Notes: generated by a model from the sequence alone, not told the origin. A stretch of DNA of 64,000 bases from Streptomyces virus Karimac (IMGVR_UViG_2974575442_000001); one strand, 5' to 3'; counted from the first letter of the stretch, positions 1 to 64,000 are shown. Made by a program: numbers and translations.

Positions 1-381
1 CTTAATTCTTCATTCGTCGCTGACCTGATGGAGGAGACTGACGAAGAGGGTTCAATCACTGAGAAGACGTACAAGCTAACCCGTCGTGGTTCTGGTACTG
101 ACTCAACTTACTCCCTTCGTGAAGTAAAGAACGACACGACTTTCGACTCAATCGACTTCGATAAGCTAGAGCTTTTCGATATTGAGTCTCAGGTTCTTCG
201 TAGCATTCCTTACGAGACTGACTACGAGCACCGAGTATTCAGCCAGGAGCAGTTCTACACTCAGTCTCCTGGTGACTGGAAGCGAATTTTCGCTAACGAC
301 GATGACGACAATGCTCAGCCTGCAACTGCTTCAACACAGAAGGCTGACGATGCCGCTACCTCAATTGAGGTTGGTTGGTAA
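1..381 (+). CDS. hypothetical protein, C-terminal part (frame open to window start)
   Basis: No stop between nt 1 and ATG at 28 in the same frame; acidic C-terminus; no recognisable motif. Confidence 0.35.
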   Translation, partial: LNSSFVADLMEETDEEGSITEKTYKLTRRGSGTDSTYSLREVKNDTTFDSIDFDKLELFDIESQVLRSIPYETDYEHRVFSQEQFYTQSPGDWKRIFANDDDDNAQPATASTQKADDAATSIEVGW

Positions 382-474
382 CAGATTTGCGAGTGGCCCC
401 CGAAAGGGGGCCTTCTTGCTTGACAGCTCTGATCAGGGCTGATAGTGTAGACCTACACAACAAGAAAGGTAACC

Positions 475-3400: not shown

Positions 3401-3795
3401 GTACGGCTGGTGTGTTCACCGATAAGGAAACTCCTATCGAAGCAGGCCAGATGTATGCTATCCTGGTATCTGACAACCGAGTCCACAGGTATGCTACGAT
3501 GGATGAGCTGATCGGCAAGATCGACACTCCGTTTGTCGAGTATCTGTATGCGAAGGACTACAGTGATATTCCTGCGGGAATGTACAAGGTTCTTAGCTTC
3601 ATGCCATACAAGACAAAGGCAGGAAAGATGATGGCCTACACCATCTTGGCAGATTCTGAAAAGGCTCTGCTTCCGGTTATGGCTTTCCCGACTACGTTCC
3701 ACAAGGCTTATGGCAAGTGCAAGCCTGGCGCAGTCATCGATCCTGTATTGAAGCAGACCCAAGAGGGCTCATTCTTCTACGACAACATTCTCTAG
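475..3795 (+). CDS. dnaE: DNA polymerase III alpha subunit (DnaE-family replicative polymerase)
   Basis: 1106 aa; N-terminal PHP-domain motif HLHDYYSALDG; conserved polymerase core block GPGRGSAAGSLVCYTLGITEVDP; purine-rich RBS before ATG 475. Confidence 0.85.
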   Translation: MNITELHLHDYYSALDGLNSPDEYMARAKELGMTHLSQTNHGTLAGHRDFQRAAKDAGIVPILGVEAYISETGRFDKTAKNKRTDGTSVYNHLIILSQNETGLKTLQTINEIAWREGYYYKPRIDMEVLEEHNDGLIVLSGCLNGLICKALEAGNAEKAIKIAQRFKSIFGERFFIEVQAHNPLEMNQGLLHIADSLDIRPVVTSDCHYARKEDLWIEEAMLILSTNPKSIKDGEFNMAKSQKMEIMERFNYLYPNRTMTFQEIEIYLRSAEEQRNAFLEQGIDRTDIITNTNLVADMIGDYPYHSGLDLLPKPKNEDPQALLEKKARAGLKNLGLDGDKKYVERLEEELSIIKQKDFSVYFIIVGNMIKWAKDQGIRVGPGRGSAAGSLVCYTLGITEVDPIKWGLLFFRFIDIGRDDWPDIDVDFADRDRDKVKQYLRRQYKHVAEIATINKFQGKAAVKAAARVFRVPVGEVNSATKDVDAPADKPDLFFDLFSKSDKGKKFTEKYPEVLELAHHLSGRIQSMGKHPAGIVVAKEEIARYAPIETAKDPNDANAPRLPIVAYDMNEAADIGLIKLDALGLKTLTVIDDTLAMIKDRTGKEIDLHSINLEDRSVYQMLADGYTLGVFQAEGNTFTKWILEAGASEFNDLVIGTSIARPGPLNTVGVNYKARKKGKEKVEYDHFIMKRHTEETLGLIIYQEQVMLAMTELAGMSMTEANKVRKIIGKKRDAKEFEQYKDKFIEGASTKVHRAVAEKLWHDFEQHAGYSFNKSHAVVYSMITYWTAWLKKHYPLEFMCALLRNEKDTSKKTSKLTDYLIEAKRLGIKILLPHVNASKEEFSIEENAIRFGITNVKYIRGNTGKRLLEHAPYANYAALYEKVNEKGSGLTSRVLTALNAIGGAAFEDNPRTGHERDNFYEYLMIPAFGTQKVIPRVMNQFRTLDEYSGTGAFPVLAMVKDVRRGEGWARVEMVDETGTAGVFTDKETPIEAGQMYAILVSDNRVHRYATMDELIGKIDTPFVEYLYAKDYSDIPAGMYKVLSFMPYKTKAGKMMAYTILADSEKALLPVMAFPTTFHKAYGKCKPGAVIDPVLKQTQEGSFFYDNIL

Positions 3796-3968
3796 GAGTA
3801 AGATGGAAGAGGCAGTGAAGGCGGAGGATCTTCTCCGCCTCCTGCTCCTTGCAAAGGGTGATATTGTAATCACCGCAGAGGAGCTGGAAAGAGCGGTTAA
3901 TGACCGCACGCGTTATTCAGTGGGTCTAAGTCATGACCCGCTCAAGAAAGAATTCACATTTCACCTGA

Positions 3969-4328
3969 TTGGAAACGATGAACGACCTGTCACTGACTGA
4001 TTACCAAGTCACTACGATGACCACCGCTATTTATCCCGGAGCTGGAAGCGGTGAGTTTGAGGCGCTGAATTACTGCCTTGTCGGCATGGCTGGCGAAGTA
4101 GGCGAGATCATGAATAAGTGGGGCAAGGTAATCCGGGACCAGAACTCAGAGCTGACTGCTGAGCAGTCAAAGGATATGGCCAAGGAAATTGGCGACGTTC
4201 TATGGTTTTCTGTCCGGGCTGTAGATGAGCTTGGCTTCTCTGTTGAGGAAATTTTAAAGCAGAATCTACAGAAGCTAAAGTCTCGGCAGGCTCGTGGGGT
4301 TCTCTCAGGTAGTGGCGACAACCGCTAA
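3969..4328 (+). CDS. MazG-like NTP pyrophosphohydrolase
   Basis: 119 aa all-alpha protein with MazG-type EVGEI...W and ELGDVLW motifs. Confidence 0.5.
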   Translation: METMNDLSLTDYQVTTMTTAIYPGAGSGEFEALNYCLVGMAGEVGEIMNKWGKVIRDQNSELTAEQSKDMAKEIGDVLWFSVRAVDELGFSVEEILKQNLQKLKSRQARGVLSGSGDNR

Positions 4329-4492
4329 GAGCTGATATACTGGCTTCATGAGCACAGAAGCATATTTCCTCCGGGGAGTCGAAGAAGAACACCTATTGGT
4401 ATTCCGAGGCGATGACCCGGAGGAAATTTTGTTTATCATCAAGCGGTTGGCCGCCTGCCGCGATAAGAAAATAAAGGCAATGGCAGAAAAAC

Positions 4493-5524
4493 TTGAAGAG
4501 GAATGGAACCAAAGAGAATATGGAAATCGAAGAGGAGATCCTAGCAAAGCTAAGCCCCAAGGTGCTGGCAAGGGCGAAGATGGGCTCAGAAGTAATTCTT
4601 CAAAAGCAGCCGACTCCAAGCACCGGACTTAATGCCGCATTGCGTGGTGGTATCGGCTACGGCCGTCAGACGCTAATCTGGGGCAGTAAGTCAGCCGGTA
4701 AGTCAACGTTCTGCCTAGGAACACTTGGTCTAGCGCAGGCTGCTGGCAAGAAGGTAGCGTTTATCGATTCAGAGCAGTCATTCGACCCTTCCTGGGCAGA
4801 AAGACTGGGAGTCGATACAAGAAAGCTGATCTACACAGACGTTAAGACGATTGAGGATATGGTCGGAGCCGGTGTCGAATTCATGAAGGCTGGCATCGAT
4901 GTAGTGACAGTAGACTCAATTTCAGCACTTCTTTCTTCTGCATACTTTGAGAAGGACAAGAAGGGTGACGAACTAAAGGATCTTAGCGGAACTAAGCAGA
5001 TTGGTTCTGAGGCTCGTGAGCTTGCCAATGGCGTTAAGATGCTTAACTACGCCAACAAGAATACAGCACTCCTGTTGATCTCACAGGTTCGTAACAAGAT
5101 TACGACTTATGGAGCTATGCATCAGGCGACTGGTGGACACGCTGTTGACTTCTTTAGCAGCACCGTCATTAAGCTTTGGTCATCTGCTCGTGAGGCTGAT
5201 CAGATTCAGGGAGAGGTTTACAATGGAGACATGATCCTTAAGGAGCCTATTGGTCGTGAGGTTACTTGGAGTATTGACAAGAATAAGCTAGGTCCACCAA
5301 ACAAGACTGGAAGTTACAATCTATTCTACGATGGTTCCTTCATCGGAATCGACAATCTTGGCGAAGCAATCGATCTCGCAATCGCTCTGGGAATTGTAGA
5401 AAAGAAGGGCAACTGGCTTTACTACCAGGACATTAAGGAAAACGGCAAGGCCGGATTCACGGCTGTCCTACGTGCAAGTGAGGAGCTATCCACCAAGCTG
5501 ATTGGGGAGGTGGAAAGTGCATAA
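4493..5524 (+). CDS. RecA-superfamily recombinase (RadA/Sak4/UvsX-like)
   Basis: Walker A GSKSAGKST; Walker B-like VVTVDSIS; start uncertain (alternative ATG near 4520). Confidence 0.6.
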   Translation: MKRNGTKENMEIEEEILAKLSPKVLARAKMGSEVILQKQPTPSTGLNAALRGGIGYGRQTLIWGSKSAGKSTFCLGTLGLAQAAGKKVAFIDSEQSFDPSWAERLGVDTRKLIYTDVKTIEDMVGAGVEFMKAGIDVVTVDSISALLSSAYFEKDKKGDELKDLSGTKQIGSEARELANGVKMLNYANKNTALLLISQVRNKITTYGAMHQATGGHAVDFFSSTVIKLWSSAREADQIQGEVYNGDMILKEPIGREVTWSIDKNKLGPPNKTGSYNLFYDGSFIGIDNLGEAIDLAIALGIVEKKGNWLYYQDIKENGKAGFTAVLRASEELSTKLIGEVESA

Positions 5525-6735
5525 TCCTTTCGAAGAAAACCCGGCGCAAGAGAAGCCAATTCAACCAGGCATCCTGATTGATGGAAGCTTCTCTTGTATG
5601 ACCTGTGGTGAAGTAGTTGATGAAGCGGAGTATTTGCCAGTCGATAAGATTCTCGGCTGGCTCTGCTCAGAAGGGCATAAGTCCTTGATTGAGAACTTTA
5701 ATCTAGGAGCGTAATGACAGAGCTAAACGAAATCAAGAGAGACGGCGGAAAGGCTCAAAAGAATTCCGGCCGTGGAAAGATTCAAAAGGGTGACGCGAAG
5801 CTAGGTCCATTCTGTTATGACATCAAGGAGTACGCTAATTCCTTTAGTGTCTCTAAGGATGTCTGGGGGAAGGTTTGCACAGATGCCTTCCGATCTGGTA
5901 GGATGGTACCGGCACTCAAGCTAGTTCTAGGAGCTGGCGACGAAAAGACCCGAGTGTGGGTTATTGGAGACAACATGTTCCATGAGATGCTAGAAGCCTG
6001 GGAGGAAAAATATGGTGAATCTGACGAGGATTGAGTTCATCCGTCGTGATAATGGCGGCTGGATGGTTTATGAGAAGTTTGAAGATGGAGCCGAACAGGG
6101 TGGCCCGGTGGGTTACGAAGAGGCTCGTCAGCTTCTTGCAGCCGCTTTTGGCGAAGATGAACATGGACCATTCACAATGGACCTAGTAAAGGAATCAAAT
6201 GAAGCTAATAATCACGGTTCCTGAGCAAGTATTCGAATACGACATTCCAGATTATGTAGCTGAGCGCTATCGAGAAATGATGGCCGAACCCCATGAAGAA
6301 TGGGAAGAGACAGACTTCTGGGATACTTGGTCATCTGATACGTGGCCAGAGACATATTTGGAGGTAGTTGATGACGACTGAGGAAAATCCTCTAGTCCTC
6401 ATTTCAAGAATTTCAGAGTTCCAAGAAGTTCATGAATTCATGGACGACGAAGATCTTGACAGAGCGCTTCACTATGTGATCAAGTTGATGATGAAGCCGG
6501 ACGTAAAAAACCCGGTGGCAGCACAGCAGCTCATCATTCAGCTACAAGCATATGCAGCTAAGTTCGCCATGATGGCCACGATCTATTCAACAATCAAGAA
6601 GGATCGTGGCGGAACAACAAATGGAATGAAGAAGAACATCTACTACACAGCGGCAGCCGAACTAGACAAGGTTGTCCAGTCCTTGAAGTATTCATTCAAG
6701 ACTCAAGTATGATACAATGATATTCGCGAAGAGAA

Positions 6736-7518
6736 ATGGATACTATGTCTACAGGACTAATTAAAACAGTACGGCTAGGAAAGAAGCTGTCTTTCGACAC
6801 TAAGAAGTTTCTTTCTATCGTTGAGCAGGCTTATGTCAACTCACGGCCGAAGAGTAAGTATTCCAAGAAGGTTTCCTTTTCTCCATCTTCTGTAGGCTAT
6901 GGTGCCGGTACTTGTCCAAGGTATTGGTACCTAGCCTTTACAGGTGGAGAATTTGAGAACACCTTCGACGGACTAAGTGTCGCCAATATGGCTAATGGTA
7001 CAGCAGCTCATGATCGAATCGAAAAGCTATTTGCTGATGCTGGTGTACTAGAAGAAGCAGAGCGTGAAATCACACATCAGAATCCCCCAATCAGGGGATT
7101 TGTTGATGTTATCGTGAACTTTGAAGGAAAGCGTGTGGTTGGTGAGTTCAAGACAACTCGCCAGGAATCTTACGTTCATCGTGAGTCAACTGGAACAGCC
7201 ATCGATTACCACAAGGTTCAGGTCCTTATTTATATGCGTGTCCTCGGTCTAGACGAGGGATTTGTTCTTTACGAGAACAAGAACACGCAGGAACTCTTCC
7301 TTGTCCCTGTCATCATGGATGAGACGAATTCAGAATATACGGACTACATCTTCAACTGGATGAACGAAGTTCGAAAGCTGTGGGAAGAAGACAAGCTTCC
7401 GACACGACCATTCAGTCAGAAGAATAAGGCATGCAAGTCATGCGCGCTATTCAATCTGTGTTGGAACGAATCTCCAGAGGGCGACATTACTAAAGCACCA
7501 TTGGAGGTGAAGAAGTAA
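6736..7518 (+). CDS. Cas4-like PD-(D/E)XK exonuclease with Fe-S cysteines
   Basis: N-terminal Cys (GTCPRYWYL); nuclease core VDVIVNFE...GEFKT; C-terminal CKSCALFNLC cysteine cluster. Confidence 0.6.
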   Translation: MDTMSTGLIKTVRLGKKLSFDTKKFLSIVEQAYVNSRPKSKYSKKVSFSPSSVGYGAGTCPRYWYLAFTGGEFENTFDGLSVANMANGTAAHDRIEKLFADAGVLEEAEREITHQNPPIRGFVDVIVNFEGKRVVGEFKTTRQESYVHRESTGTAIDYHKVQVLIYMRVLGLDEGFVLYENKNTQELFLVPVIMDETNSEYTDYIFNWMNEVRKLWEEDKLPTRPFSQKNKACKSCALFNLCWNESPEGDITKAPLEVKK

Positions 7519-7800
7519 TTGATTTGCGCCTATGGAGAATGCGGCAACATGTTTGAGCCCAAGACTCATAATCAGAAGTTTTGTAGCTCAGCATGTTGCC
7601 GTAAGGCGACCAACGCACGAATTATGGAAAAGTATTATGCCAGACGTGATCGCAAGAGAGGGAAAGTGCGAACATGTTCTGAGTGCCCGACCGTTCTTTC
7701 AAGATATAATGGCTCAGAAAAGTGCGAAAGTTGCCAGGGAAAAACGCGGCGGGATGAGAGAGCCGAACTTTTGGAGTTGATTGGTAGTGCCTCTTTCTGA
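7519..7800 (+). CDS. zinc-ribbon protein
   Basis: 93 aa with several CxxC pairs. Confidence 0.35.
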   Translation: MICAYGECGNMFEPKTHNQKFCSSACCRKATNARIMEKYYARRDRKRGKVRTCSECPTVLSRYNGSEKCESCQGKTRRDERAELLELIGSASF

Positions 7801-7828
7801 CCTTCACAAGACGAAGGCTCAGAAGGTA

Positions 7829-8356
7829 ATGGGTATCGACTGCTCAACTAAGTCTATTGCATTCACAATCTTCGACGGAGAGAACTTCTACAGATGTGGA
7901 GAGGTTAACTTCACAGGTTCAACAGTTTTTGAGAGAACTTATGACGCTCACGTAAAGACTTTAGCACTATTCGAAGAGTTCACTCCTGACTTTGTGGCAA
8001 TCGAAGCGGCGATTATGGTTCGAAGCACATCAGTAGCTATCAAGATGGCTTATGTGTTTGGTGCAGTAATCGCAGCTTTGCTCAAGAATGGAGCGACAGT
8101 AATTGAAGTTCCTCCTATGAGCTGGCAGTCATTTATTGGAAACAAGATTTTGACTAAGGCTGAGAAGGATGCGATTAAGGCTGAGTTCCCTGGGAAGTCT
8201 GCAAGTTGGTATCAGAATAAGGGCAGACAGATCAGGAAGCAGCGAACCATCACCTTTGCCAAGGATAAATTTGGCATTGAGCTGACAAGCGATAACGTGG
8301 CTGACTCACTGGGAATTGGCTGGTGGGCAGTACAGAACAAAACTAGAAGGAGCTAA
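7829..8356 (+). CDS. RuvC-like Holliday junction resolvase
   Basis: N-terminal MGIDCSTKS catalytic-Asp motif typical of RuvC/A22-type resolvases; alternative upstream start at 7781. Confidence 0.55.
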   Translation: MGIDCSTKSIAFTIFDGENFYRCGEVNFTGSTVFERTYDAHVKTLALFEEFTPDFVAIEAAIMVRSTSVAIKMAYVFGAVIAALLKNGATVIEVPPMSWQSFIGNKILTKAEKDAIKAEFPGKSASWYQNKGRQIRKQRTITFAKDKFGIELTSDNVADSLGIGWWAVQNKTRRS

Positions 8357-8357
8357 C

Positions 8358-8822
8358 ATGATAGTAGCGGGAACTGGACATCGAGATCTGAGGGACCGTG
8401 ACTGGATTGCTGGCCAAATGGAGAAGGCCCTCATTGATATGGGGGCCTCTCTTGTTTACGTCGGCATGGCCTCTGGAGCTGATCTCCTAATGGCGAAAAT
8501 CTCTTGGGGTCTAGGTATTCCATTCATTGCTGCAAAGCCCTGGAGGGGCCACAAGCCTCGCCTGGCAGATGAATATGACTATGGTCGAGCCCTGCACTAC
8601 GCAGAAGAGGTTGTCAATGTTACCAACTATGACAGCTATCCTGGTGCATGGGTGTACGAGGAGCGAAACCGATACATGGTTGACAACGGTGATGCCTATC
8701 TGGCAGTATTGGAAGCCGGTAGGACTGGCGGAACGTACAATTGTGTTAAGTACGCATCTCGCAAGGGGAAGCCAGGAATTGTCATTGATCCACTTATGAG
8801 GGAGGTGACGAAGCTTGGCTAA
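8358..8822 (+). CDS. SLOG/DprA-like Rossmann-fold nucleotide-binding protein (YspA/DUF1273-like)
   Basis: GTGHRDL and GMASGADL motifs; RBS gaaggag before ATG 8358. Confidence 0.45.
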   Translation: MIVAGTGHRDLRDRDWIAGQMEKALIDMGASLVYVGMASGADLLMAKISWGLGIPFIAAKPWRGHKPRLADEYDYGRALHYAEEVVNVTNYDSYPGAWVYEERNRYMVDNGDAYLAVLEAGRTGGTYNCVKYASRKGKPGIVIDPLMREVTKLG

Positions 8823-8960
8823 GCTATATGAGAGCAAGGCGTGGTTGCAGGAGAGATACCGAACAATGAATGCGGCTCAAATCGCAAAGATTTGTGGAGT
8901 TTCTGAAATGACGATCACTCGATGGCTCGGAAAACACAATATTCCAATCAGGAGGAGCCG

Positions 8961-9752
8961 ATGAGATATAATTCTCGTCAAGAAGTCGAACGTGCTGGAG
9001 AGCGCGGCGCAAAGAGTGAGACAGATGAGTATGGCACTCGTTACTGGATGCTAGATAGCTTCTGGATGTATGCAGAGGACGACGATTACGCCATGACTCC
9101 GCATTTTGCTGCGGGCCGGTGCTATTGGGAATCCTGGGTTACTGCATACATTTCACAAAGAGTAGAACCAGACGCAGTATTCGTGGACGTTGGTGCCAAT
9201 CTCGGCTACTACTCCTTGTGGGCCGCTACACATGGATGCAACGTATTTGCTTTTGAGCCAAATCAAGATTTGTGGATGAGGCTTTACCACGCAAAGAGAC
9301 TGAATGGTGCAAAGATCTACCAGGGCCATGTGGCTCTTGGAGATAGCTGGGAACCAACGGAAAGAATTCTTTACATTCCAGAGGGTCATTCTGGCGGAGC
9401 AAATATGTATGGAGCTTCTGGCAACTATACAATGCAGCACATGTACGTCCAGAGTTTTGACAATGCGGTTCCGATTCCACGAGATTATGATGGAACCATT
9501 TACGTAAAGATTGATGCAGAAGGTGCGGAGCCAGAGATTTTCGCTGGTATGAAGTGGTGCTGGAAGCAGAGATCAATGGTTCTATTCATGGAGTGGGACA
9601 TCAGCAGATACGATAAGTCATTTGGCGAGAAGCTTCTTGACAGTGGTAAGGTTAGCCTGATAGAGTACGATGGTACAGCCAGGGAGCTGGATCTTGATGG
9701 CCTACTTAGCCTAAAGGAACTACGAATGATTGTGGTGGAAAACAACAAGTGA
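8961..9752 (+). CDS. FkbM-family SAM-dependent methyltransferase
   Basis: VDVGANLGYYS SAM-binding motif; RBS aggagg 6 nt before ATG 8961. Confidence 0.55.
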   Translation: MRYNSRQEVERAGERGAKSETDEYGTRYWMLDSFWMYAEDDDYAMTPHFAAGRCYWESWVTAYISQRVEPDAVFVDVGANLGYYSLWAATHGCNVFAFEPNQDLWMRLYHAKRLNGAKIYQGHVALGDSWEPTERILYIPEGHSGGANMYGASGNYTMQHMYVQSFDNAVPIPRDYDGTIYVKIDAEGAEPEIFAGMKWCWKQRSMVLFMEWDISRYDKSFGEKLLDSGKVSLIEYDGTARELDLDGLLSLKELRMIVVENNK

Positions 9753-10372
9753 TTAAGATCGGAATGACCGGTGCTCAGGGCACTGGAAAGACATCAATGG
9801 CTCAGGCCATGATAAACAGCCCGGCGTTCAAGGATTTCGTCCTTGTTCCATCAACAGCTAGACAGATCAAGGACTATGGTTACCCAATTAATCGGGAAGC
9901 AACAGAGCTAAGTCAACTCCTTGTTCCAGCTCTTAGAATGGTTGATGAATGGGAAACCATGAACAGCCCACAGAATACTCTGTACAAGCAGGGAATCATC
10001 TCTGACAGAACTCTGATCGACTCACTAGCCTACACCTATTACCAAAATGAGCATGTCTGGGAGAATGGTGCACTAGTCGAGAATGTTACCAGACGATTGA
10101 CAGAGATGCACATGCAGTCTTACCATTTCGTACTATATTTCCCGGTGTATTGGGAGGCAGAGGACGATGGTGTAAGGGATGCTGACGAATCATATAGAAC
10201 GAGAATCGATGACTATGTGATTCAAGCGCTAGAAATGCTAAACGTTCCCTATCTGACAGTTCCAGATGTTTCACCAGAAGAACGAGTTGAATGGTTCATC
10301 AGTGAGATTCAGGAACTATACGCAGAAGCAGAGAGGCAGTATCTACGCCGTTTCGGCAACGATCTGCTATAA
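9749..10372 (+). CDS. P-loop ATPase (NadR C-terminal domain-like)
   Basis: Walker A GAQGTGKTS; start overlaps previous stop (ATGA). Confidence 0.45.
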   Translation: MIKIGMTGAQGTGKTSMAQAMINSPAFKDFVLVPSTARQIKDYGYPINREATELSQLLVPALRMVDEWETMNSPQNTLYKQGIISDRTLIDSLAYTYYQNEHVWENGALVENVTRRLTEMHMQSYHFVLYFPVYWEAEDDGVRDADESYRTRIDDYVIQALEMLNVPYLTVPDVSPEERVEWFISEIQELYAEAERQYLRRFGNDLL

Positions 10373-10706
10373 TAATCTTGAAAGCGAGGAGATATGGGAA
10401 CACCTACTAGAAGACGTTCCAAGGCTAAGAACCCTGACGCATGGTGGCAGCAAGCTTACCTTGGAATTGATCATATCGTTCCCGCGTACGAATTCGAACT
10501 TGATGGAGAAATGATTCTGCCAAAGGCGCTCATCAAGTTCAAGAACACGCGAGGCACTTATAAGTTTCGATGCGTTGCCACAAACATAAAGACTGGAAAG
10601 ACCTGGATTGACTGCATTAATGCGGACACTGGTGAATGGAAGTCTTTCTATGTGGAGCGACTAAAGGGACTGGTAAAGCCTAAGCGTTCACGCAGAAGGA
10701 GAAAGG

Positions 10707-11231
10707 TTGCCTAAAGAGCTAGAGCAGATCGACAGAATTGAGCGAATGAATGATGTCGTGACTGCATATCTTAAGGGCGACAATCCTACTCAGATTGCCA
10801 AGATCACTGGGCTTAAGCGCGCAGAAGTGCTTGAATATATTGAAGAGTGGCGCGTAGTCGCTCAGAACAACAAGACTATTCAAGCACGAGCGACTGAGGC
10901 ATTGACCTCAATGGATGAGCATTATAATATGATCATCCGTGAACTGTGGGAAACGATGGAGCAGGCCGACTTGAATAACGATTTCAAGCTAAAGGCCACA
11001 GTTCTAAAGTCTCTCGCAGACGTTGAAGGCAAGAGAGTTGACCTCTTGCAGAAGGCAGGACTTCTCGATAATCAGCAAATTGGTGATGAAGTAATCGAGA
11101 TGGAGAAGAAGCACGAAATCCTTATTGGAATTCTGCGAGAAGTAACCTCCGACTGTCCTCACTGTAAGGTAGAGGTCGCCAGAAGACTTTCCAGCGTAAC
11201 GGGCAAGACAGAAACAATTGTCGTCCCCTGA
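10707..11231 (+). CDS. putative terminase small subunit / HTH DNA-binding protein
   Basis: 174 aa with HTH-like segment (NPTQIAKITGLKRAEVLEYI); lies immediately upstream of the large terminase. Confidence 0.35.
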   Translation: MPKELEQIDRIERMNDVVTAYLKGDNPTQIAKITGLKRAEVLEYIEEWRVVAQNNKTIQARATEALTSMDEHYNMIIRELWETMEQADLNNDFKLKATVLKSLADVEGKRVDLLQKAGLLDNQQIGDEVIEMEKKHEILIGILREVTSDCPHCKVEVARRLSSVTGKTETIVVP

Positions 11232-11289
11232 TCAATAATCCTATATCCTTTCATGATATACTATTCAATATGAAAGGATATAGGATTTT

Positions 11290-13113
11290 TTGATGTCAAC
11301 AGACTTTACCGAGTTCTTCAATGCTCTATCAGACGAAGACTTTGAAGAGATTCCAGTTGATATTGAGACATTCGTTCAGAGTCCCGACTATTTGGGAATG
11401 CCTCATCTGTCCGAATATCAGTATCAGCTTATTCGTGCCTCCAGTCAGATCTATAAGGAGAGCACGCTTTACAACATTTACGAGGCACAAAAGGCCCGGC
11501 AGAGATGGCAGGAGACCTGTAACGAAGTAATCGCCTGTCTTGGAAAGGGTAGTGGTAAGGACTTCACATCAACCATTGCCTGCGCCTATATCGTGTATCT
11601 CTTGCTATGCCTGCGTAATCCAGCAAAGTATTTTGGAAAGCCTGCTGGAGACTCCATTGACATTCTCAACATTGCTATCAACGCAGCACAGGCCAACAAC
11701 GTCTTCTTCAAGGGCTTCAAGAGCCGTATCGAGGGCTCCCCCTGGTTTGTAGGAAAGTTCACGACTAAGGCGGGCCACATCGCATTTGATAAAAACGTGA
11801 ACGTCTACTCAGGCCACTCAGAGCGTGAAGCCTGGGAGGGCTACAACCTGATCTACTGCGTCCTTGACGAGATCTCAGGTTTTGCGCTAGACTCTACATC
11901 AGGAAACGAACAGGCAAAGACTGCTGATGCTGTCTACAAGATGTATCGAGCATCTGTGGACTCTCGATTCCCTGCCGAAGGAAAGGTAGTTCTTCTATCA
12001 TTCCCAAGATTCAAGAACGACTTCATTTCCCAGAGATATGAAGCTGTTGTTGCTGAAAAGCAGGTTATCGAAAGACAGCACACCTTCAAGCTAGATCCAG
12101 ACCTCCCAGATGAAATTGAGGAAAACAAGTTCTCAATTAAGTGGGAAGAGGATCACATTGTTTCTTATAACATTCCACGTGTATATGCGTTGAAGCGTCC
12201 TACATGGGAAGTAAATCCAACGCGTAGAATTGAAGATTTTACCACCGCGTTCTTTACTGATCCTGTTGATGCATTGTCTCGTTTTGCATGCATGCCGCCT
12301 GACGCAATTGACGCCTTCTTCAAGGATAAGGAGAAGGTCGAAGCGGCATTCTGTCGTCCAAATCCAATTGATGAAGATGGCACCTACAGCCCTGACTTTG
12401 TTCCAAAGGAAGGTGTGCGATACTATGTTCACGTTGACCTTGCACAGAAGCACGACCGGTGTGCAGTGGCTCTTGCGCATGTGGAGAAGTTTGTCCAAAA
12501 GAAGATCGGTGGTCAACTAAACGAAGTATTGCCATTTGTTGTGGTTGATGCTGTAAGATGGTGGACACCGAAGCCAGGACAAGACATTGACTTTGCTGAT
12601 GTTCGAGAGTACATTACTGGATTGAAGCGAAGAGGATTTGATCTAAGACTTGTAACCTTTGACCGATGGAACTCTAATGACCAGATGAAATATCTGCGAG
12701 GAGTTGGAATTAATTCAGAGGTGCTTTCTGTAGCAAAGAAGCATTACGAAGACTTGAGTTGGGTCGTATATGATCAAAGACTCATCGGTCCTGATGCTGG
12801 CGTTCTTCGCAGAGAGCTGCTACAGTTGAGAATCATGCCGAACGACAAGGTTGATCACCCAAGAACTGGCTCAAAGGACTTGGCTGACGCAACTTGTGGC
12901 GCGGTGCACAATGCGATCACACACACGCCTCGTGAAGAGAATGCTGTTATTGAGGTCCAGACCTATGAGACTCTTCGACGTGCAGAAGTTCAGGCTCGTC
13001 AGGAAGAGGTTGACAGCCAGCGAGAACGTGATAATGTGATTATAGCTCCTCGTGAGAGGCGTGAGATGCCTGATGACATTCAGGAATATCTCACGAGGCT
13101 AGAAATTATCTAA
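11290..13113 (+). CDS. terminase large subunit
   Basis: 607 aa; ATPase Walker A LGKGSGKD and Walker B VLDEISG; C-terminal RNaseH-like acidic residues; followed by HNH nuclease. Confidence 0.65.
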   Translation: MMSTDFTEFFNALSDEDFEEIPVDIETFVQSPDYLGMPHLSEYQYQLIRASSQIYKESTLYNIYEAQKARQRWQETCNEVIACLGKGSGKDFTSTIACAYIVYLLLCLRNPAKYFGKPAGDSIDILNIAINAAQANNVFFKGFKSRIEGSPWFVGKFTTKAGHIAFDKNVNVYSGHSEREAWEGYNLIYCVLDEISGFALDSTSGNEQAKTADAVYKMYRASVDSRFPAEGKVVLLSFPRFKNDFISQRYEAVVAEKQVIERQHTFKLDPDLPDEIEENKFSIKWEEDHIVSYNIPRVYALKRPTWEVNPTRRIEDFTTAFFTDPVDALSRFACMPPDAIDAFFKDKEKVEAAFCRPNPIDEDGTYSPDFVPKEGVRYYVHVDLAQKHDRCAVALAHVEKFVQKKIGGQLNEVLPFVVVDAVRWWTPKPGQDIDFADVREYITGLKRRGFDLRLVTFDRWNSNDQMKYLRGVGINSEVLSVAKKHYEDLSWVVYDQRLIGPDAGVLRRELLQLRIMPNDKVDHPRTGSKDLADATCGAVHNAITHTPREENAVIEVQTYETLRRAEVQARQEEVDSQRERDNVIIAPRERREMPDDIQEYLTRLEII

Positions 13114-14368: not shown

Positions 14369-14392
14369 ACTCCCAACACTTATCCACATAAT

Positions 14393-14667: not shown

Positions 14668-14791
14668 CTGGTCCGACTTTACGATATCGGCGGAAATAAT
14701 CGAATCGGAACGCACGCAATAACCTAGGTAAAGGTGCGGAATGAGGAGAGGAAATATGCGGGAAGCGATGGGTAAAACCTCCTCGGACCGA
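14668..14791 (+). ncRNA. Y-RNA-like ncRNA with CTGGTCCGA 5' motif
   Basis: 5' CTGGTCCGA is identical to the conserved 5' end of metazoan Y RNAs; pairs with 3' TCGGACCG to close a ~124-nt RNA; contains AATCGAATCGG motif shared with other loci. Confidence 0.45.
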
Positions 14792-16034: not shown

Positions 16035-16556
16035 ATGACGGTACTTCTTAGGACTATCCACGGAAGCCATCTGTATGGCCTCGCTCACGCAAACAGCGAT
16101 AAGGACATTTACGAAGTAATTGCAACCAATCGCACGAAGCGTAAGCGAAACATTAAGCAAACCATTGCGAATGGTGTTGACAAGACGACGGTAGATATGT
16201 CAACATTTATGAAGATGGTTGATGATTGCGTACCTCAAGCACTTGAAGCGCTATGGACGCCGGTCGCTGAGATCGATAAGATCCACGAATTCCGGACACA
16301 ATATCGAGTGAATCGCGCCAAGATGAAAGATGTGTACGTACGAACTGCCCTTAACTTCGCTAAGGGTGATGGGGTAAAGCAGAAGAAGCACGCAGTGCGA
16401 TTGCTGTTGAACCTTGGTCACACTTTGGAGTTTGGAAAGTTCAATCCTCGATTGGGTGCAATGGATAAGATCATTATCAATGCATCTGTCGGAGACGCGG
16501 GAAAGTATGATGCCGTGTTCGACGCTCTAATTGATGAGGTCGGCCGGTGGATATAA
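16035..16556 (+). CDS. minimal nucleotidyltransferase (Pol-beta superfamily)
   Basis: HGSHLYGLAHANSDKD matches the hG[GS]x9-13Dh[DE] NTase signature; sits inside the tRNA cluster. Confidence 0.45.
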   Translation: MTVLLRTIHGSHLYGLAHANSDKDIYEVIATNRTKRKRNIKQTIANGVDKTTVDMSTFMKMVDDCVPQALEALWTPVAEIDKIHEFRTQYRVNRAKMKDVYVRTALNFAKGDGVKQKKHAVRLLLNLGHTLEFGKFNPRLGAMDKIIINASVGDAGKYDAVFDALIDEVGRWI

Positions 16557-18857: not shown

Positions 18858-19031
18858 ATGGCTCTATCAAAGCTATTTCCTGTGGGGACTCGGGTAAAGG
18901 TTACTCGTGGCTCCTATAAGAACAAGTATGGTCACGTTCGTCTCGTGGGTAATGATCACAAGATCGTCATCCTTGAGAATGGTGGAACACCGCTGTATGG
19001 TGTGAGTGATGAGATGGTTCAAAGGGCCTGA
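18858..19031 (+). CDS. small KOW/SH3-like protein (family member)
   Basis: 57 aa; GTRVKVTRGSYKNKYGHV...IVILENGG pattern shared with at least 8 other small ORFs. Confidence 0.35.
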   Translation: MALSKLFPVGTRVKVTRGSYKNKYGHVRLVGNDHKIVILENGGTPLYGVSDEMVQRA

Positions 19032-20088: not shown

Positions 20089-20433
20089 CATAGGAGCATT
20101 ATGCTAAGAAAAGGAAAGAAGCAGAAGGACTGCTATCACGTCAATGTGAGATCAATTCACGGAGACGAGATTATCCACAGTGGATACAAGCGGGCCTACT
20201 GCTATGACTGCGAACGATATCTACCAACATTGCCACCGAAAGGGCGAAATGGCTAAGTCAAAGAAGGAACTGGAAGCTCAGCTAAAGGCTTTCCAGAAGG
20301 AAGTTTCAAAGTATGAGGGCCTTCGAGACAAGGCACTAAAGGATGGAAACAAGAAGAAGGCGGCCGATTATGCAATGGCTGTAGCCGGACTCAAGAACTC
20401 CATCAAGGAAATCGGAACACAACTAAGGAACAT

Positions 20434-21417: not shown

Positions 21418-21657
21418 GGACTCAGATGTTCAACGGTTTCACGGCCTTCCTTGACACGATGAACAAGAGTATGGCACAGTGGGAAGCAGAGCAAGAGAAG
21501 ATCCGAGAAGCATTCGCTGAGGGTGTTACTGTAGAGTTTGAAGACGGTGAAGTGCGAGAGTACGGGCCGTTTGACAAGCCCTCACCTTGATGCTACTGTA
21601 GTTATAGGTGGTCAGTCGTAAGGAAGACAAATTCCGAATCGGCCCGCCACCGTTTGG

Positions 21658-39677: not shown

Positions 39678-39954
39678 GGGGATGCCTTGGTTTCGACTGG
39701 GGTGGATGACTTTAGTTTGCAGCCAGACATTGAGGAGATGTCTTTAAAAAGCCTCAAACCTATAAATGCCAACTCTAACGTTGCGTCTGCCTACGCCCTA
39801 GCGGCGTGATGGCCGGGCGGCAACTGCCTAGGAACAGAAAGTTGCGAATGTTTGGCCCGGTGGGGATAAACACATGCACTACCTGCTTGACACATGGCTG
39901 TGTATAGACTACTGTTTGAAGCATCAGGACGCGGGTTCGACTCCCGCCATCTCC
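39678..39954 (+). ncRNA. ssrA: tmRNA (SsrA), tag peptide (A)ANSNVASAYALAA
   Basis: 5' GGGGATGCCTTGGTTTCGACTGGGGT and 3' GGACGCGGGTTCGACTCCCGCCATCTCCAC align with E. coli ssrA ends; acceptor with G3-U70; tag ORF GCC AAC TCT AAC GTT GCG TCT GCC TAC GCC CTA GCG GCG TGA at 39767-39808. Confidence 0.8.
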
Positions 39955-39968
39955 ACTTAAGGATCAAC

Positions 39969-59311: not shown

Positions 59312-60781
59312 GAGGTGCACATGGCACTGATGACTGATCTCGCTCGAATGACTGATGCAGAGATCTCAAATAAGTTCAAGGGTCTTGTCGAAGGCTACGC
59401 TAAGGATCTTGCTAAGAGCAACAAGAGCAAGGGTGATCCTGGCACTGCTTCTATCGCCTCTGTGCGAGTCGGTAAGATTAAAAGAAAGAAGGGTCAGCTA
59501 GTTCCCTCACAGATCCTTCTTGCAATGCGTGCGGCCATCTGGAAGATGGGATGGGCACAGGGTGTTCTTCGTGACGAAGAGGGAAGGCTTTGTCTTCGTG
59601 GCGCAATGGTATGGCTCTATCGTAAGGGCTATTTCCACCAGGAAGATGGCGACATTGCTGCTCAGTGGCTTCACGACGAAGTTCGCAGGAAGAATGGCGA
59701 TGCGCAGAAGTACAACTTCATTTACTGGAACAACGATCCTCGCAGGACTCTTGCAGAGATTCTAAAGATTCTGGAGGACGCTGGTAATCGTGCCAAGCTG
59801 GCAGGAGAGTGACTGGGAGCTAGCTGGATATCTTTCAGAAGAAGACTTTCAGCTAGCTCAGGTACAATGGGAAAGAGTGGCTGAGGAGTTCTCACAGCTA
59901 CGACAGCGAATGCAGGAAATAGGCCCGGTGGCTGAGGCGGCTGGTAATTCTTTCAATGCATTCAGAGAGGCACAGGGCATGGCAGTGGACATTCGACACA
60001 ACGAATACCCAATGCGTGATGGCTATGGAACCTATTGGTATGATCCGAGCGGATTTCATGGTGACCACGAAGAGAACTGCTTTATCTGTGGTGAGTTCAC
60101 TAACAGAGTAGACATTGATTTCCACGGATACTTCTGCAACTCAGACGAGTGCAACGAGGTTATTCGTAAGGATCTCGAACGTCTGAACGGTGGACCAGAG
60201 CAGACTGATTGACAAATCCATATGTTCTGATCTAGCATAAGAACATTATGAGATATACAATCGTAAAGGAGTCTCTTAAAAGAGGCAGGGTGGTGGAAGG
60301 CTACAACTACTGCATCCTTGACACCAAGGTTGATAAGGTAGTCTTCCGTCACTCATCCGAATTCAAAGCTGAGTTCATCAAGGACTCTTTCAATGAAGCA
60401 AATGTAAGTAGCCGATTCGAATACGAATTGTCAGGCAACGAAAGCATTGAAGATCTAGATGATTCAGCATTTCAAGGGGAATGAATGCTGGAGAAATTGG
60501 CCTGGCGATATTTGGCCCGGCGCATGGAGTCCCATCGTAAAGCAGGTAGACACCATGAAGCAGACCATATAAGAGCAGCCCTTGCTACTAGACCACAAAA
60601 GCAATGCGCACTCTGCTGCATATTGGAGAATACAGACTGGCTTGCATGGGCAGTAAGGTTTGACCCAACGTCCGATATGGACAAGGACAGTGAGCTGTAT
60701 GCAGGTATTATTGCAGATGAATCCCGGTTTGGCGATGTGGTTCGGAGAGCTGGATTGGACTGACTGGGAATGGGAAGAAGA

Positions 60782-60815
60782 AGAGGACCGGCTTAGTGCT
60801 GGTCCTTTTCCGTTT
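60782..60815 (+). terminator. rho-independent terminator closing the plus-strand block
   Basis: Stem aggaccgg/ctggtcct, loop cttagtg, then ttttccgtttt. Confidence 0.6.
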
Positions 60816-60841
60816 TCAGCAGGCAATTCGGATTTGGTGGA

Positions 60842-61810
60842 TTTTTAGTCAGAGTTCGATTTTTTAGTCATGAATCAGTTGGCCAGATTTTTAGTCAGAA
60901 AAAGCCCGGTGGCTAGAGTTCCCCCATACATATAAGACTCATAAGACATAACCACATAAGACAGATAAGACAAGACAGAGCAGACAGAAGACGCTGTATG
61001 GCTTTGTAATAAAGAGGGCATAGTCAGAGACACCAATCATTTAAAGCATTGTGAGAAGCGAACGTAGGCATGTCAGCAGCCTTGATAGAAGACTGATTGA
61101 TGGCTTCGTGTCAGCCTTGAAATCATCAAAGTATCTTGACATCGAGACATAGTTATCCACAACCTGTGTACTTACCTGTGGATAACTTTCTGAGATTGTT
61201 GACTATCTTGATATAGAGATACTTGTTGAAAGATAGTGTGTAATGGTGCAGGAAATCGAAGGCGGATCGTAAGCCATATCTTCATTTCTAAGGTCAGAAG
61301 GGGGTTCCAGCCTTAGATTCACAGCCAATATATGCAGCCAGCCTAATAAAGTATCGATTCAAGGGCTCAGCGGGCCTCTTAAAACCAGCAAAAATAGCCC
61401 CAAAACCTATGAAAACTGCCAATAATCGGCCTAAAACCTGCGAAAACACGGCATTTCTGCACATTTTTGGATGCATTCGTAAAGGGCATGCCAGATAGAC
61501 CTTAGAATCATAGCTATGCATGCCTATTTTGCCTTAGATTCGTAAGTCAGCCCTAGTAGACAGCCAGATTATGCAGCCATGACTATACAGCCTGGATAGT
61601 CAGCCAAGACAGATTGATTGTGCTATGTCTTATATGTAGAATTGACCCGGTGGAGTATTGGTTGATTCTCTATGTCTTATATAGTACAAGGACACCTACT
61701 GCCACCGGCCAATCATCCTTGTATATCCTATGTCTTATATCGTAAAACAGAAGAAGCCTCCCAATAAAGACGGGAGGCTTTGTTTCATGTCTTATATAAG
61801 ACAGACCGAA
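60842..61810. repeat. non-coding repeat hub: 3x TTTTTAGTCA, 4x ATAAGACA, 4x ATGTCTTATAT, 16-bp palindrome TGTCTTATATAAGACA, CAGCCA/CCTTAGATTC repeats
   Basis: Core TGTCTTAT and its reverse complement occur at least 8 times; bidirectional terminator aagcctccc/gggaggctt at 61754-61780; no ORF over 60 aa. Confidence 0.65.
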
Positions 61811-62153
61811 CTAACTGTCTTGAATTTGAAATTGAAAATCATCCGGGGAATTTCGGCCCATTCGTAAATGCGCTTCAAGATCTTCCGGGAATTTTAGTCC
61901 CTATCGTAAAGGGCGAAAAATCGGACATGAAGGACAAATGACTAATCGACCATGTAGTCATGGGAGTTAGTTAGGATAAGCAACGAACCGGGGCGGCTAG
62001 CACTTCGTGCCATAGGATAAAATTGAAAGGTCCCTGGGTTGCAGCCGACCATCTGCTATTTAATCCCTCGCCCGAGATGGACTGATAGGGAACCCAGGAA
62101 CACACCTTATGACCTCACTACAATAGTGTAACAAGGCCATCGCTCTGTGTCAA

Positions 62154-62396
62154 TCACCACTGCAACTCGTCAGTGACGTTGTAGTGCGAGACGAACGGCA
62201 CCACCCAACGAGAGTTCAGAAGCTTGCCCTTCTCCTCCCACAGGGTGAGAGTGCCAGTCTTGACATCGAACTCGATGCCATTGTCCATGATGCCTGTGAA
62301 TTCCAGCTCCCTTCGGATACCCTCTTCGAGAACGATCACGGTCACAGTGCGAGTCATGTTCTGTCCCTTCGTTGATACTAGTCTAACAGAGTACAA
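62154..62396 (-). CDS. hypothetical protein
   Basis: 80-aa minus-strand ORF; first gene of the minus-strand block. Confidence 0.4.
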   Translation of the reverse strand: MYSVRLVSTKGQNMTRTVTVIVLEEGIRRELEFTGIMDNGIEFDVKTGTLTLWEEKGKLLNSRWVVPFVSHYNVTDELQW

Positions 62397-62457
62397 GGGA
62401 CATGTCTACCACCGGGCCAAAATGACCGGGGCGGTCAGGCCCCGAAGGGCCTAGCCT

Positions 62458-62760
62458 TTAGAAGTCGGTTTCGTCGTTGTACAGATCCTCTTCGATCTCG
62501 CTCAGAGCCTCACCCAGCCAAAAAGCCTTTTCCTTACGACGGATCTCACGACGGTGCCATTTCCCATTGTCCAGCTCATCCATGTAGCGGTGAGCGAGGA
62601 TACGGCTACCACCCATGACGCCAGACTTTCCAGAGCTGGAGTGACAGCAGTAGCCACCACACGTCCGACGCCCGGTGCCGGGGATCGGGATTCCCTTGCT
62701 CATGTTGGCACGCTCCTTTTCGAGAATGTAGGAGTAGTATCCGTTGAGATCCGTTGCCAT
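62458..62760 (-). CDS. hypothetical Cys-rich protein
   Basis: 100 aa; CGGYCCH motif; RBS aaggagga upstream on minus strand. Confidence 0.4.
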   Translation of the reverse strand: MATDLNGYYSYILEKERANMSKGIPIPGTGRRTCGGYCCHSSSGKSGVMGGSRILAHRYMDELDNGKWHRREIRRKEKAFWLGEALSEIEEDLYNDETDF

Positions 62761-62824
62761 GCTCCTCCTTCGAACTGTTGCCAGTCTACACTAGTAGTCT
62801 CAGGATGTCCAGAGACCGGGGCGG

Positions 62825-62850
62825 CCAAAAGCCCCCGCCGAAGCGGGGGC
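62825..62850 (-). terminator. rho-independent terminator (minus strand; palindromic hairpin)
   Basis: gcccccgc-cgaa-gcgggggc hairpin followed on minus strand by TTTTGG. Confidence 0.6.
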
Positions 62851-62857
62851 CGTTGAC

Positions 62858-63898
62858 TCAGGCAGCCAGACTCAGCACTGCCTTACGGATCTTGTTCTTC
62901 TCAGCGTTGATCACCGGGTCGAAACCACTCGCCGCAGCGAACAGATTGTCAACCTCACCCTTACGCGGCATCCGGTACCAGTCCAGACGCTCAGTCAGCG
63001 CGTTCAGCGCACCGGCCATCGTGCCAGCCAGAGACTGAGTGGTCTTGGGGCCGTCGCCCGTGTCGGTGAAGATTCCCATCAGCAGATCACGCTTGCCGTC
63101 CCACTTGACCTGAGAACCCTTGACGTTCTCAGTCGGACGGTCACCGTAGATCGTCTTGATCAGTTCATCGAACTGATTCTTCGTGCACTCCGTGCGGAAC
63201 AGTTCGTTCATCTCGCGCTCGAACTCATCCGCGTAGGCGAAGGTGATGTTCAGTGCCTCACGCGCGGCAGCCATGCGACCCTCGATGGTCTGAGTGTGGC
63301 GCATCTTGAACGTCTGCTTCACACCGTTACGGAGTGCGAAGTTCAGCGTGTTCTGACACACGACACGAACCGGAGTGACGCTCGCCTGCACCGCGAGAGA
63401 ACCGTCATGGGAGGTGTTGACCAGCAGATACATGTTGGTCACGTCGGAGTCACCGACCAGAACCTCTCGGCCGATACGCAGAGATCCGAAGACCTGCGTA
63501 CCATCCTTGATAGAACCGGCAGTCTCCCACGTTCCACCACCCGCAAGGATGCCGTCACCGAAGGCGAACAGCTCCTCATTCTGCACCACCTTATAGCGAG
63601 CGGCCACGATGCCAAGGGAGTCGTCCAGCCCATCGAACGGGTTGGTACGGATCACCTCGAACATGTCCTTAGACACGCGACCCTTACGCTCCAGAAGTTC
63701 CAGCCGCACGTTCCAGTTGGACAGGTGTGCGAGCCGAAGCATCTCGGAAGTGGTGAGTTCACCTTCGAAGACAGTTCCGAGGTTGTGCCACGCGGGCTCC
63801 AGACGAGAAGCGAACGCGACCTGACCACGGGAACCGATTTCGAGACCGTGCATTTTTGCTCCAATGATTGGCGGATTTACTACTAGCTTACCTTGCAC
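62858..63898 (-). CDS. putative structural (major capsid-like) protein
   Basis: 346 aa; composition and size like HK97-fold capsid proteins; assignment tentative. Confidence 0.3.
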   Translation of the reverse strand: MQGKLVVNPPIIGAKMHGLEIGSRGQVAFASRLEPAWHNLGTVFEGELTTSEMLRLAHLSNWNVRLELLERKGRVSKDMFEVIRTNPFDGLDDSLGIVAARYKVVQNEELFAFGDGILAGGGTWETAGSIKDGTQVFGSLRIGREVLVGDSDVTNMYLLVNTSHDGSLAVQASVTPVRVVCQNTLNFALRNGVKQTFKMRHTQTIEGRMAAAREALNITFAYADEFEREMNELFRTECTKNQFDELIKTIYGDRPTENVKGSQVKWDGKRDLLMGIFTDTGDGPKTTQSLAGTMAGALNALTERLDWYRMPRKGEVDNLFAAASGFDPVINAEKNKIRKAVLSLAA

Positions 63899-64000
63899 GG
63901 GGACTACTTGTCAAAGTAGTCAGAGAACACCCTGTGGAGTTGATCAAGCAACAGATCATCCAAGGCTTCGGGCTTTCGCCTTCCCCCTTGCTGATAGCTC

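Follow-up and report, generated by a model that had tools for sequence, protein, structure and literature searches.

The right-hand terminal repeat of Streptomyces virus Karimac begins inside a 1.3-kb non-coding interval, which we analyzed within a 64,000-nucleotide stretch of its genome (IMGVR_UViG_2974575442_000001; hereafter the window, whose coordinates are used unless the record is named). This interval, at 60842 to 62150, lies at a convergent strand switch in which both flanking gene blocks terminate, and it is the junction of unique DNA with the right copy of a 12.6-kb direct terminal repeat (DTR) in a cluster-BE phage. With about even confidence, and from sequence comparison, we consider it to be the concatemer junction, a cis-acting center where replicated head-to-tail DNA would be recognized and cut, combined with the gene for an early noncoding RNA (ncRNA). 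The recognition, cutting, and duplication of long terminal repeats are poorly understood outside T7, and the role of the T5 repeat region is still argued.

The 1.7 kb around the interval matches Streptomyces phage Karimac (MH590599; 131,909 bp; Stanwilliamsviridae, cluster BE) at 100% identity, with window coordinates equal to those of the record minus 58,074, and the region is common to approximately 85 related Streptomyces phage genomes. Direct comparison matched record bases 1 to 12590 to bases 119320 to 131909 with 0 mismatches; the same sequence thus stands at both ends of the linear record, as expected of a DTR genome, and the repeat measures 12,590 bp. Because its right copy begins at 61246, the interval consists of 404 bp of unique DNA followed by the first 905 bp of the DTR. 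A first-pass annotation made from the sequence had offered an origin, a regulatory nexus, or a genome-terminus repeat. The last of these was borne out, in that the left DTR boundary lies inside the interval and occupies the homologous base in each of the 14 other phages compared, which represent three genera (Karimacvirus, Samistivirus, and Tomasvirus). The left cut flank, ...TAGTGTGTAATG^G (the caret marks the cut), is conserved across these genera (seven Karimacvirus genomes were aligned first, followed by Samistivirus and Tomasvirus), and the boundary flanks in relatives read ...GTGTGTAATG^ on the left and ...GCATGTAT^ on the right. The right boundary reads ...GCGAAGCATGTAT^C, and in the two genera examined there, Karimacvirus and Samistivirus, the DTR finishes on the right with an invariant 29-mer, ATTGTTACAAAGGTATGCGAAGCATGTAT. 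Conserved flanks at both boundaries indicate that both cuts are sequence-specific and, judging from the aligned boundaries, the left end of the packaged genome is generated between 61245 and 61246. For BE1 phages and Coruscant, the ends have been placed by single-base read pile-ups with 2× coverage between them (PMC5764925, PMC7650747).

Imperfect inverted repeats of about 45 bp flank the left cut. The left copy, IR-L, whose composite element itself spans 60902 to 60938, lies approximately 300 to 345 bp upstream of the cut and recurs in inverted orientation as IR-R, approximately 430 to 465 bp downstream; IR-L and the reverse complement of 61673 to 61711 are identical at 34 of 49 positions. 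The core motif differs by genus, being TGTCTTATA in Karimacvirus, TGTATATAG in Samistivirus, and TATAGGGG in Tomasvirus at the same offsets. In each genus it stands in one orientation about 240 to 320 bp upstream of the cut and predominantly in the opposite orientation about 330 to 550 bp downstream. Identity between IR-L and IR-R within a genome is 30 to 39 of 48 positions, no lower than that between the IR-L copies of different genera (25 to 29 of 45). The repeated motifs beside this specific cut are genus-specific yet matched within each genome, as pac- or cos-type motifs would be. That the core motif has changed in step on both sides of the cut speaks for a single trans-acting factor co-evolving with its sites, and the three genera amount to natural “specificity swaps” of the flanking motif, pointing to mutable sites. 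A possible long-range RNA helix, CCGGTGG/CCACCGG, is better explained as part of the IR-L/IR-R repeat in DNA. Each genome has one IR-L and one set of the DnaA-type boxes described below, and only at a junction do these stand opposite IR-R across the cut; for this reason we favor a role in recognition and cutting, drawn by analogy with T3/T7 junction signals, P1 pac, and lambda cosB.

T7 and T3 have site-specific ends with a DTR, pacB and pacC, and short-repeat arrays, with recognition elements in unique DNA just upstream of the repeat; promoters and transcription near their concatemer junction have been implicated in maturation. This picture is said to come from Dunn and Studier in 1983, Chung and Hinkle in 1990, and Fujisawa and Morita in 1997. 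The T7 repeat measures 160 bp, with its signals no more than tens of base pairs from the cut. Karimac resembles these phages in its DTR ends, in having recognition-type elements upstream of the repeat, and in the adjoining arrays of short repeats, but differs in the length of its DTR, in the distance of its arrays from the cut (300 to 550 bp), and in their inverted-pair arrangement. P1 pac and lambda cos also have several short recognition repeats at a specific cut, where a host architectural protein helps (IHF at cosB). Recognition repeats flank or adjoin the cut in these systems, as their putative counterparts do in Karimac, whereas the type of end (headful packaging in P1, cohesive ends in lambda), the much greater compactness of both, and their lack of DnaA boxes set them apart.

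The repeats listed in the first-pass annotation were all present, within 1 to 3 bases of where it had placed them and far above chance. TTTTTAGTCA occurs three times (60842, 60861, and 60888), a count reached in 0 of 100 shuffles, and each of the three genera has TTTTAGTCA arrays at −320 to −408 relative to the DTR boundary. The only other such array in the genome, three copies of TTTTTAGTC(A/T), is inside the DTR at 10560 to 10630 of the Karimac record, just upstream of the putative gene 22 promoter. On the plus strand, ATAAGACA occurs at 60941, 60956, 60965, and 61796, with ATAAGACT at 60932. Four ATGTCTTATAT sites (61625, 61672, 61730, and 61787; spacings of 47, 58, and 57 nt) are kept in seven Karimacvirus genomes, with one substitution in one site (Enygma) and variable spacers, and the 16-bp palindrome TGTCTTATATAAGACA is at 61788 to 61803. 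A genome-wide scan, which that annotation had recommended, showed that the 8-mer TGTCTTAT is essentially confined to the region: there are nine copies in the window versus 2.0 expected (0 of 100 shuffles), eight of the nine within 60941 to 61803, and a single other copy in the non-redundant Karimac genome. What had not been recognized is that the TGTCTTAT sites are part of the larger inverted repeat flanking the cut. Two copies of CCTTAGATTC, CCTTAGAATC, and 10 copies of CAGCCW also occur in the interval, as do two 34-nt direct repeats (61840 to 61873 and 61882 to 61915). The blocks TTTGTAATAAAGA and GAGAAGCGAACGTAGGCATG are kept while their flanks vary, apart from a few substitutions in Yaboi and KentuckyRacer.

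Such motifs could instead be operators through which a phage regulator controls the RNA gene and nearby early promoters, with the position at the genome end incidental; we regard this purely transcriptional explanation as rather improbable. One TGTCTTATAT site does fall in the spacer of a promoter-like TTGATT-17-TAGAAT, the full palindrome abuts a terminator, and another early promoter, inside the DTR, has the second TTTTTAGTCA array just upstream of it. That plus-strand promoter is not conserved, however: its −35 element is lost in Enygma and its spacing is altered in Genie2. IR-L has no gene to regulate, being downstream of a terminator and convergent with it, and transcription by itself hardly accounts for sites that are arranged symmetrically about the cut in three genera. 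The regulatory nexus of the first-pass annotation was partly right, since terminators, promoters, and repeated binding-site-like motifs are all present. A plus-strand small RNA running from TTGATT-17-TAGAAT (61614 to 61642) to the terminator was rejected as a candidate because neither the −35 element nor the spacing is conserved.

Between IR-L and the cut, two inverted DnaA-type boxes that the first-pass annotation had not listed stand beside an AT-rich stretch, the 58 bp of 61188 to 61245 being 31% GC in a genome of 49% GC. TTATCCACA occurs four times in the window versus 0.54 expected. It matches the high-affinity E. coli/B. subtilis box at nine of nine positions and the high-affinity Streptomyces (S. 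coelicolor) box, TTGTCCACA (PMC4285127), at eight of nine. The box arms are invariant in the Karimacvirus and Samistivirus genomes examined, except that the left box of StarPlatinum is CTATCCACA; two phages have a third box, and the pair is absent in Tomasvirus (Tomas and Naboo). The 15-nt loop between the boxes (61162 to 61176) varies, and it is reverse-complemented in Karimac relative to the ∼96%-identical IchabodCrane, a flip that suggests repeated inversion of a small hairpin or cruciform. In the non-redundant genome as a whole, TTATCCACA occurs seven times, compared with roughly one copy expected from length alone. Five of these lie away from the terminus, each on the plus strand, at window positions 14380 to 14388 and 20171 to 20179 and at 18922, 43677, and 46939 of the record; one of the five is directly upstream of tRNA-Gly (14393).

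Taken on their own, these elements recall a replication origin at which host DnaA would bind the boxes and open the AT-rich 58 bp, the TGTCTTATAT/ATAAGACA sites would be iterons for a phage initiator, and the leftward RNA could be a primer or activator transcript. We consider an origin here unlikely. The two boxes are perfect matches to the E. coli/Bacillus type, are over-represented, and adjoin an AT-rich element, the repeated sites are unique to the locus, a strong promoter is directed toward the region, and the loop flip between close relatives suggests that the palindrome extrudes as a hairpin. The sites, however, are irregularly spaced and oppositely oriented on the two sides, unlike iterons, and no initiator gene is adjacent, the neighbors being small and without an assigned function. 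Moreover, the box agrees with the host high-affinity box at only eight positions (PMC4285127), Tomasvirus does without it, between the RNA promoter and the boxes stands a bidirectional terminator, and similar boxes in T5 have been argued not to be an origin (10.1101/866236). The satellites MiniFlayer and MulchRoom, which have their own terminases, are reported to lack replication genes (PMC10690885), and are said to rely on helper replication, contain none of the arrays, boxes, or RNA; this is weak evidence that mildly favors packaging over an origin.

The closest described analogue is T5 Repeat Region 3 (iss), approximately 1.2 kb of untranslated DNA with direct and inverted repeats, palindromes, and TTATCCACA boxes at the inner edge of a ∼10-kb terminal repeat, which it overruns by 270 bp into unique DNA (10.1101/866236). 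Its proposed role, and it is a proposal only, is that of a DNA-entry stop acting via membrane-bound DnaA (10.1101/866236). Both regions are longer than 1 kb and untranslated, lie at the inner edge of a 10- to 12-kb DTR that carries small early genes, spill into unique DNA, contain TTATCCACA boxes, and have had HNH genes inserted in some relatives. By contrast, the boxes of T5 number about eight and lie inside the repeat, in pairs with 3 bp between them, whereas Karimac has one inverted pair, 15 bp apart, outside the repeat and 56 to 94 bp from the boundary. The Karimac host is actinobacterial and prefers the box TTGTCCACA, there is no sequence similarity, an RNA gene is predicted in Karimac and none is described in T5, and two-step entry has not been described for BE phages. 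Karimac would nonetheless represent a second, unrelated phage group with a T5-type layout, in a Gram-positive, high-GC host.

This likeness raises the possibility of a T5-like stop, in which the DTR would enter first, its small early genes would be expressed, and entry would pause at the box/repeat region until early proteins release it. The layout closely parallels that of T5, with a large untranslated stretch rich in repeats and palindromes at the inner edge, and, as would be expected of genes expressed very early, those of the DTR have terminators of their own and promoters of the host type. We hold such a stop to be unlikely too, with one box pair in place of eight boxes, the boxes outside the DTR, no boxes in Tomasvirus, and a DnaA model that is only a proposal for T5 itself.

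Under the concatemer-junction reading, a phage DNA-binding protein would bind the composite inverted repeat on both sides of the cut, together with the extra half-sites and one full palindrome. The binder would most simply be the small terminase, or else an accessory factor, with a specificity that has evolved together with the motif of each genus, and its binding would bring the nuclease to the conserved TAGTGTGTAATG^G site. The box pair and the AT-rich 58 bp upstream of the cut would probably draw in host DnaA or a phage dimer, either for an architectural role or to open the DNA. The DTR would then be duplicated as in T7-type phages, with a second cut at the equally conserved ...GCGAAGCATGTAT^C. 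Several points weigh against this scheme. None of the parts of the Karimac record that were examined has an annotated small terminase subunit, the arrays lie further from the cut than in lambda, T3/T7, or P1, and the box is one position off the Streptomyces box (PMC4285127) and missing as a pair in Tomasvirus. MulchRoom has terminus-proximal sequence in common with its helper yet lacks the arrays, which therefore may not define the cut. Finally, DnaA-type boxes, an AT-rich stretch, and repeated sites also fit an origin or a T5-like entry stop.

Other observations concern the ends themselves. The right cut falls inside the near-palindrome TGTAT^CATACA (Karimac record 12560 to 12600 and the ends of relatives), and the only plus-strand gene of the DTR, an HNH endonuclease gene, lies just inside the right end. 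The left end of MulchRoom (1 to 45) reads ATGGGGTAT...TTCGTAAG versus GTGGGGTAT...TTCGTAAG in the helper, a similarity matched by 3 of 3,000 random 45-mers, and its right end (14748 to 14787) reads ...CATGTAT. The MiniFlayer repeat begins directly after GATTTTAGTCA (16382 to 16393).

The second component of the junction is a predicted ncRNA read from the minus strand. Its promoter, with 10 of 12 matches, outranks every other promoter-like site of the region and of the entire DTR. The −35 element, 17-nt spacing, TG, and TAnnnT are kept in 17 sequences from the three genera while the spacer sequence drifts. The terminator at its other end, bidirectional and the top minus-strand terminator match, has a stem that differs by genus and always pairs (GCCTCCC/GGGAGGC, GCCTGCC/GGCAGGC, GCCACCC/GGGTGGC, and CCCGTCTCC/GGAGGCGGG). 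We infer from these elements that the RNA would be read by host RNA polymerase from a strong, conserved promoter toward the end of the repeat and would stop at this terminator. Both terminators listed in the first-pass annotation, this one and that at 60785 to 60816, were found.

Conserved blocks occur along the length of the predicted RNA, and a minimum-energy fold reproduces the three-way junction at its 5′ end. The inverted repeat at 62030 to 62096 described in the first-pass annotation is the closing helix of this junction; it is present, although its distal arm is AACCCAGG (62091 to 62098), eight of the nine bases originally given, and not aacccaggg. Pair counting was restricted to the three-way junction, the alignment elsewhere in the RNA being too gappy. 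Across 20 distinct sequences, standard pairs fill 99.8% of 451 pair cells, versus at most 61% in slid controls, and 10 of the 23 pairs have changed on both sides (50 cells), which 0 of 500 shuffles reached. The 29 G-U cells, including one invariant U-G, would be A-C mismatches on the plus strand, and the consensus fold scores −35.1 on the minus strand versus −25.7 on the plus strand. This pattern of substitution indicates that the 5′ three-way junction is clearly under structural selection. With compensatory changes, a promoter and terminator, and no conserved open reading frame (ORF), the locus has the general features of a structured ncRNA.

Downstream of the junction follow, in order, a variable hairpin, an invariant CUAACUAAC, two units of about 42 nt, the palindrome (in Karimacvirus), and the terminator. 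Both ∼42-nt units are kept in all genera, and some Samistivirus members change the loop while keeping the stem (CCUU-UAAGUC-AAGG). TCGTAAA occurs in plus orientation at similar offsets in all genera; the UACG-capped units explain both this family-wide motif and the 34-nt repeats. In StarPlatinum, about 110 nt are inserted in the predicted RNA after the three-way junction and before the next hairpin (∼62020), in a variable region. A 17-codon ORF beginning at a conserved AUGUCCGA in the RNA was rejected, as it has no ribosome-binding site and its frame and length differ between genera.

A covariance model detected exactly one copy of the RNA per DTR, hence two per genome, and no paralogue. Among 69 viral loci with a neighboring DUF945 gene, the RNA was found in every BE-type locus, including Mildred21 and three metagenomic contigs, and not in the more distant DUF945-bearing viruses. 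Rfam 15 gave no match on the three-way junction (58 to 64 kb at E up to 1; 61700 to 62170 at E up to 10), and the only Rfam matches at the RNA were weak and driven by the terminator. Exact-word scans of metagenome and bacterial-genome collections with the most conserved 16-mer gave, among the matches listed, almost entirely chance hits and one soil contig that is a true relative; of the bacterial-genome loci listed, none had the RNA. A literature search found no description of these elements and no BE-phage transcriptome. The RNA would be a new family with strong covariation support, missing from the annotation of more than 80 deposited genomes. The ribonucleotide reductase and LysM genes flank a weak match to the three-way-junction model (18 bits, E = 0.009), at approximately 21584 to 21640 of the Karimac record on the minus strand, which is probably noise.

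The pRNA of phi29 is encoded by a small gene a few hundred base pairs from the left end, with a host-type promoter directed toward that end and a three-way-junction core; phi29 has protein-primed ends and no terminal repeat of the Karimac kind. The Rfam models are believed to include a pRNA family. In position, direction, promoter type, and three-way-junction core, the predicted Karimac RNA is like pRNA, but Rfam scans gave no match and there is no sequence or model similarity. It is quite improbable, in our estimate, that BE phages deliver or mature their DNA through a T5-like DnaA-box checkpoint and need the three-way-junction RNA to pass it or to process the ends. If true, an RNA made from the first-entering DNA would be a new class of phage RNA, the counterpart of packaging or priming RNA in a terminal-repeat phage. 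Alternatively, and this is a guess, the RNA is an early regulatory or anti-host RNA and not part of the cutting machinery.

Table 1. Sequence features at the Karimac terminal-repeat junction (window coordinates).
Feature	Position	Strand	Details
Intrinsic terminator	60785..60816	+	GGACCGGCTTAGTGCTGGTCC then TTTTCCGTTTT; after gene 258, closing the plus-strand block
Array of three (GA)TTTTTAGTCA motifs	60842..60897	+	3 copies versus 0.18 expected
IR-L (left copy)	60902..60972	+	GCCCGGTGGC-N18-ATATAAGAC, then further ATAAGAC(A/T) copies, four in all
Two conserved non-coding blocks	61003..61072	.	TTTGTAATAAAGA, GAGAAGCGAACGTAGGCATG; seven Karimacvirus genomes
Inverted DnaA-type box pair	61151..61187	.	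AGTTATCCACA-N15-TGTGGATAACT; −94/−70 from the cut, outside the DTR
AT-rich spacer	61188..61245	.	31% GC over 58 bp; ends in the conserved cut-site flank AGATAGTGTGTAATG
Right-hand DTR copy	61246..64000	.	Continues past the window end; base 61246 corresponds to base 1 of virion DNA
Repeat-rich spacer beside the terminus	61246..61620	.	CAGCCW, CCTTAGAWTC, A-rich AAAAC runs, TCGTAAR
Four ATGTCTTATAT sites and IR-R	61625..61803	+	Last site forms the 16-bp palindrome; IR-R (61673-61711) is the inverted partner of IR-L
Bidirectional intrinsic terminator	61744..61790	.	Stem 61754-61780
Predicted ncRNA	62119-61742	-	∼375 nt; starts ∼7 nt past the −10 hexamer and runs to the terminator
Two tandem ∼42-nt repeat units in the RNA	61840..61915	-	Each with a small UACG-capped hairpin (TCGTAAA on the plus strand)
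Three-way-junction domain	62022..62107	-	RNA 5′ end; contains ccctgggtt/aacccagg as helix P1
RNA promoter, sigma-70/HrdB-type	62125..62153	-	TTGACA, 17 nt, TACACT, with TG-n before the −10
Gene 259 (identical to gene 1)	62154..62357	-	GenBank; first protein gene of the DTR, right limit of the non-coding region

The interval has no coding capacity of its own, as had been claimed. None of its 11 small ORFs is intact in relatives, whereas the flanking gene 259, which has no Pfam family, is intact in five Karimacvirus relatives. The small-ORF calls in GenBank differ from genome to genome, which fits non-coding DNA. For annotators, the nature of the junction explains why inconsistent small ORFs called there should be dropped. 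Gene 258 ends at 60763. The minus-strand genes had been said to begin at 62396, and the ORF of gene 259 can indeed be extended to that position; the annotated first gene is that listed in Table 1.

An ORF does lie in the homologous region of about a third of close relatives, but it belongs to an insertion of approximately 610 bp between TTTTTAGTCA copies 2 and 3 that encodes a minus-strand endonuclease VII/HNH gene (Pfam PF02945, E = 8e-24). Because this insertion is present or absent among genomes more than 93% identical, the gene is mobile and not resident. A gene that comes and goes here, together with imperfect 45-bp inverted repeats about 730 bp apart, could mark a mobile-element relic, with IR-L and IR-R as the terminal inverted repeats of an inserted element or the region as a homing-endonuclease landing pad. 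We consider this very improbable: all members of the three genera have the region in the same location, none shows an empty site, no transposase is present, the DTR boundary and a conserved RNA gene are inside or beside it, and the endonuclease insertion lies outside the inverted-repeat pair.

The DTR genes resemble separate early units, with nine minus-strand promoter-like sites bearing a Streptomyces-type −10 element, TAGACT; one of this type, at 62408 to 62380, would serve gene 259, which follows a terminator at 62445 to 62426. At 62811 to 62925 on the minus strand, Rfam gave a weak match to the proteobacterial small RNA sX6 (19.5 bits, E = 0.064). Its score falls far short of the gathering threshold and comes mostly from a terminator-like hairpin, and the match is probably due to chance. 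Elsewhere in the window, between 14393 and 56076 and all on the plus strand, ARAGORN identified 44 tRNA genes (two with undetermined anticodons) and one tmRNA (39678 to 39956), a wealth that is a known hallmark of cluster-BE phages (PMC5764925).

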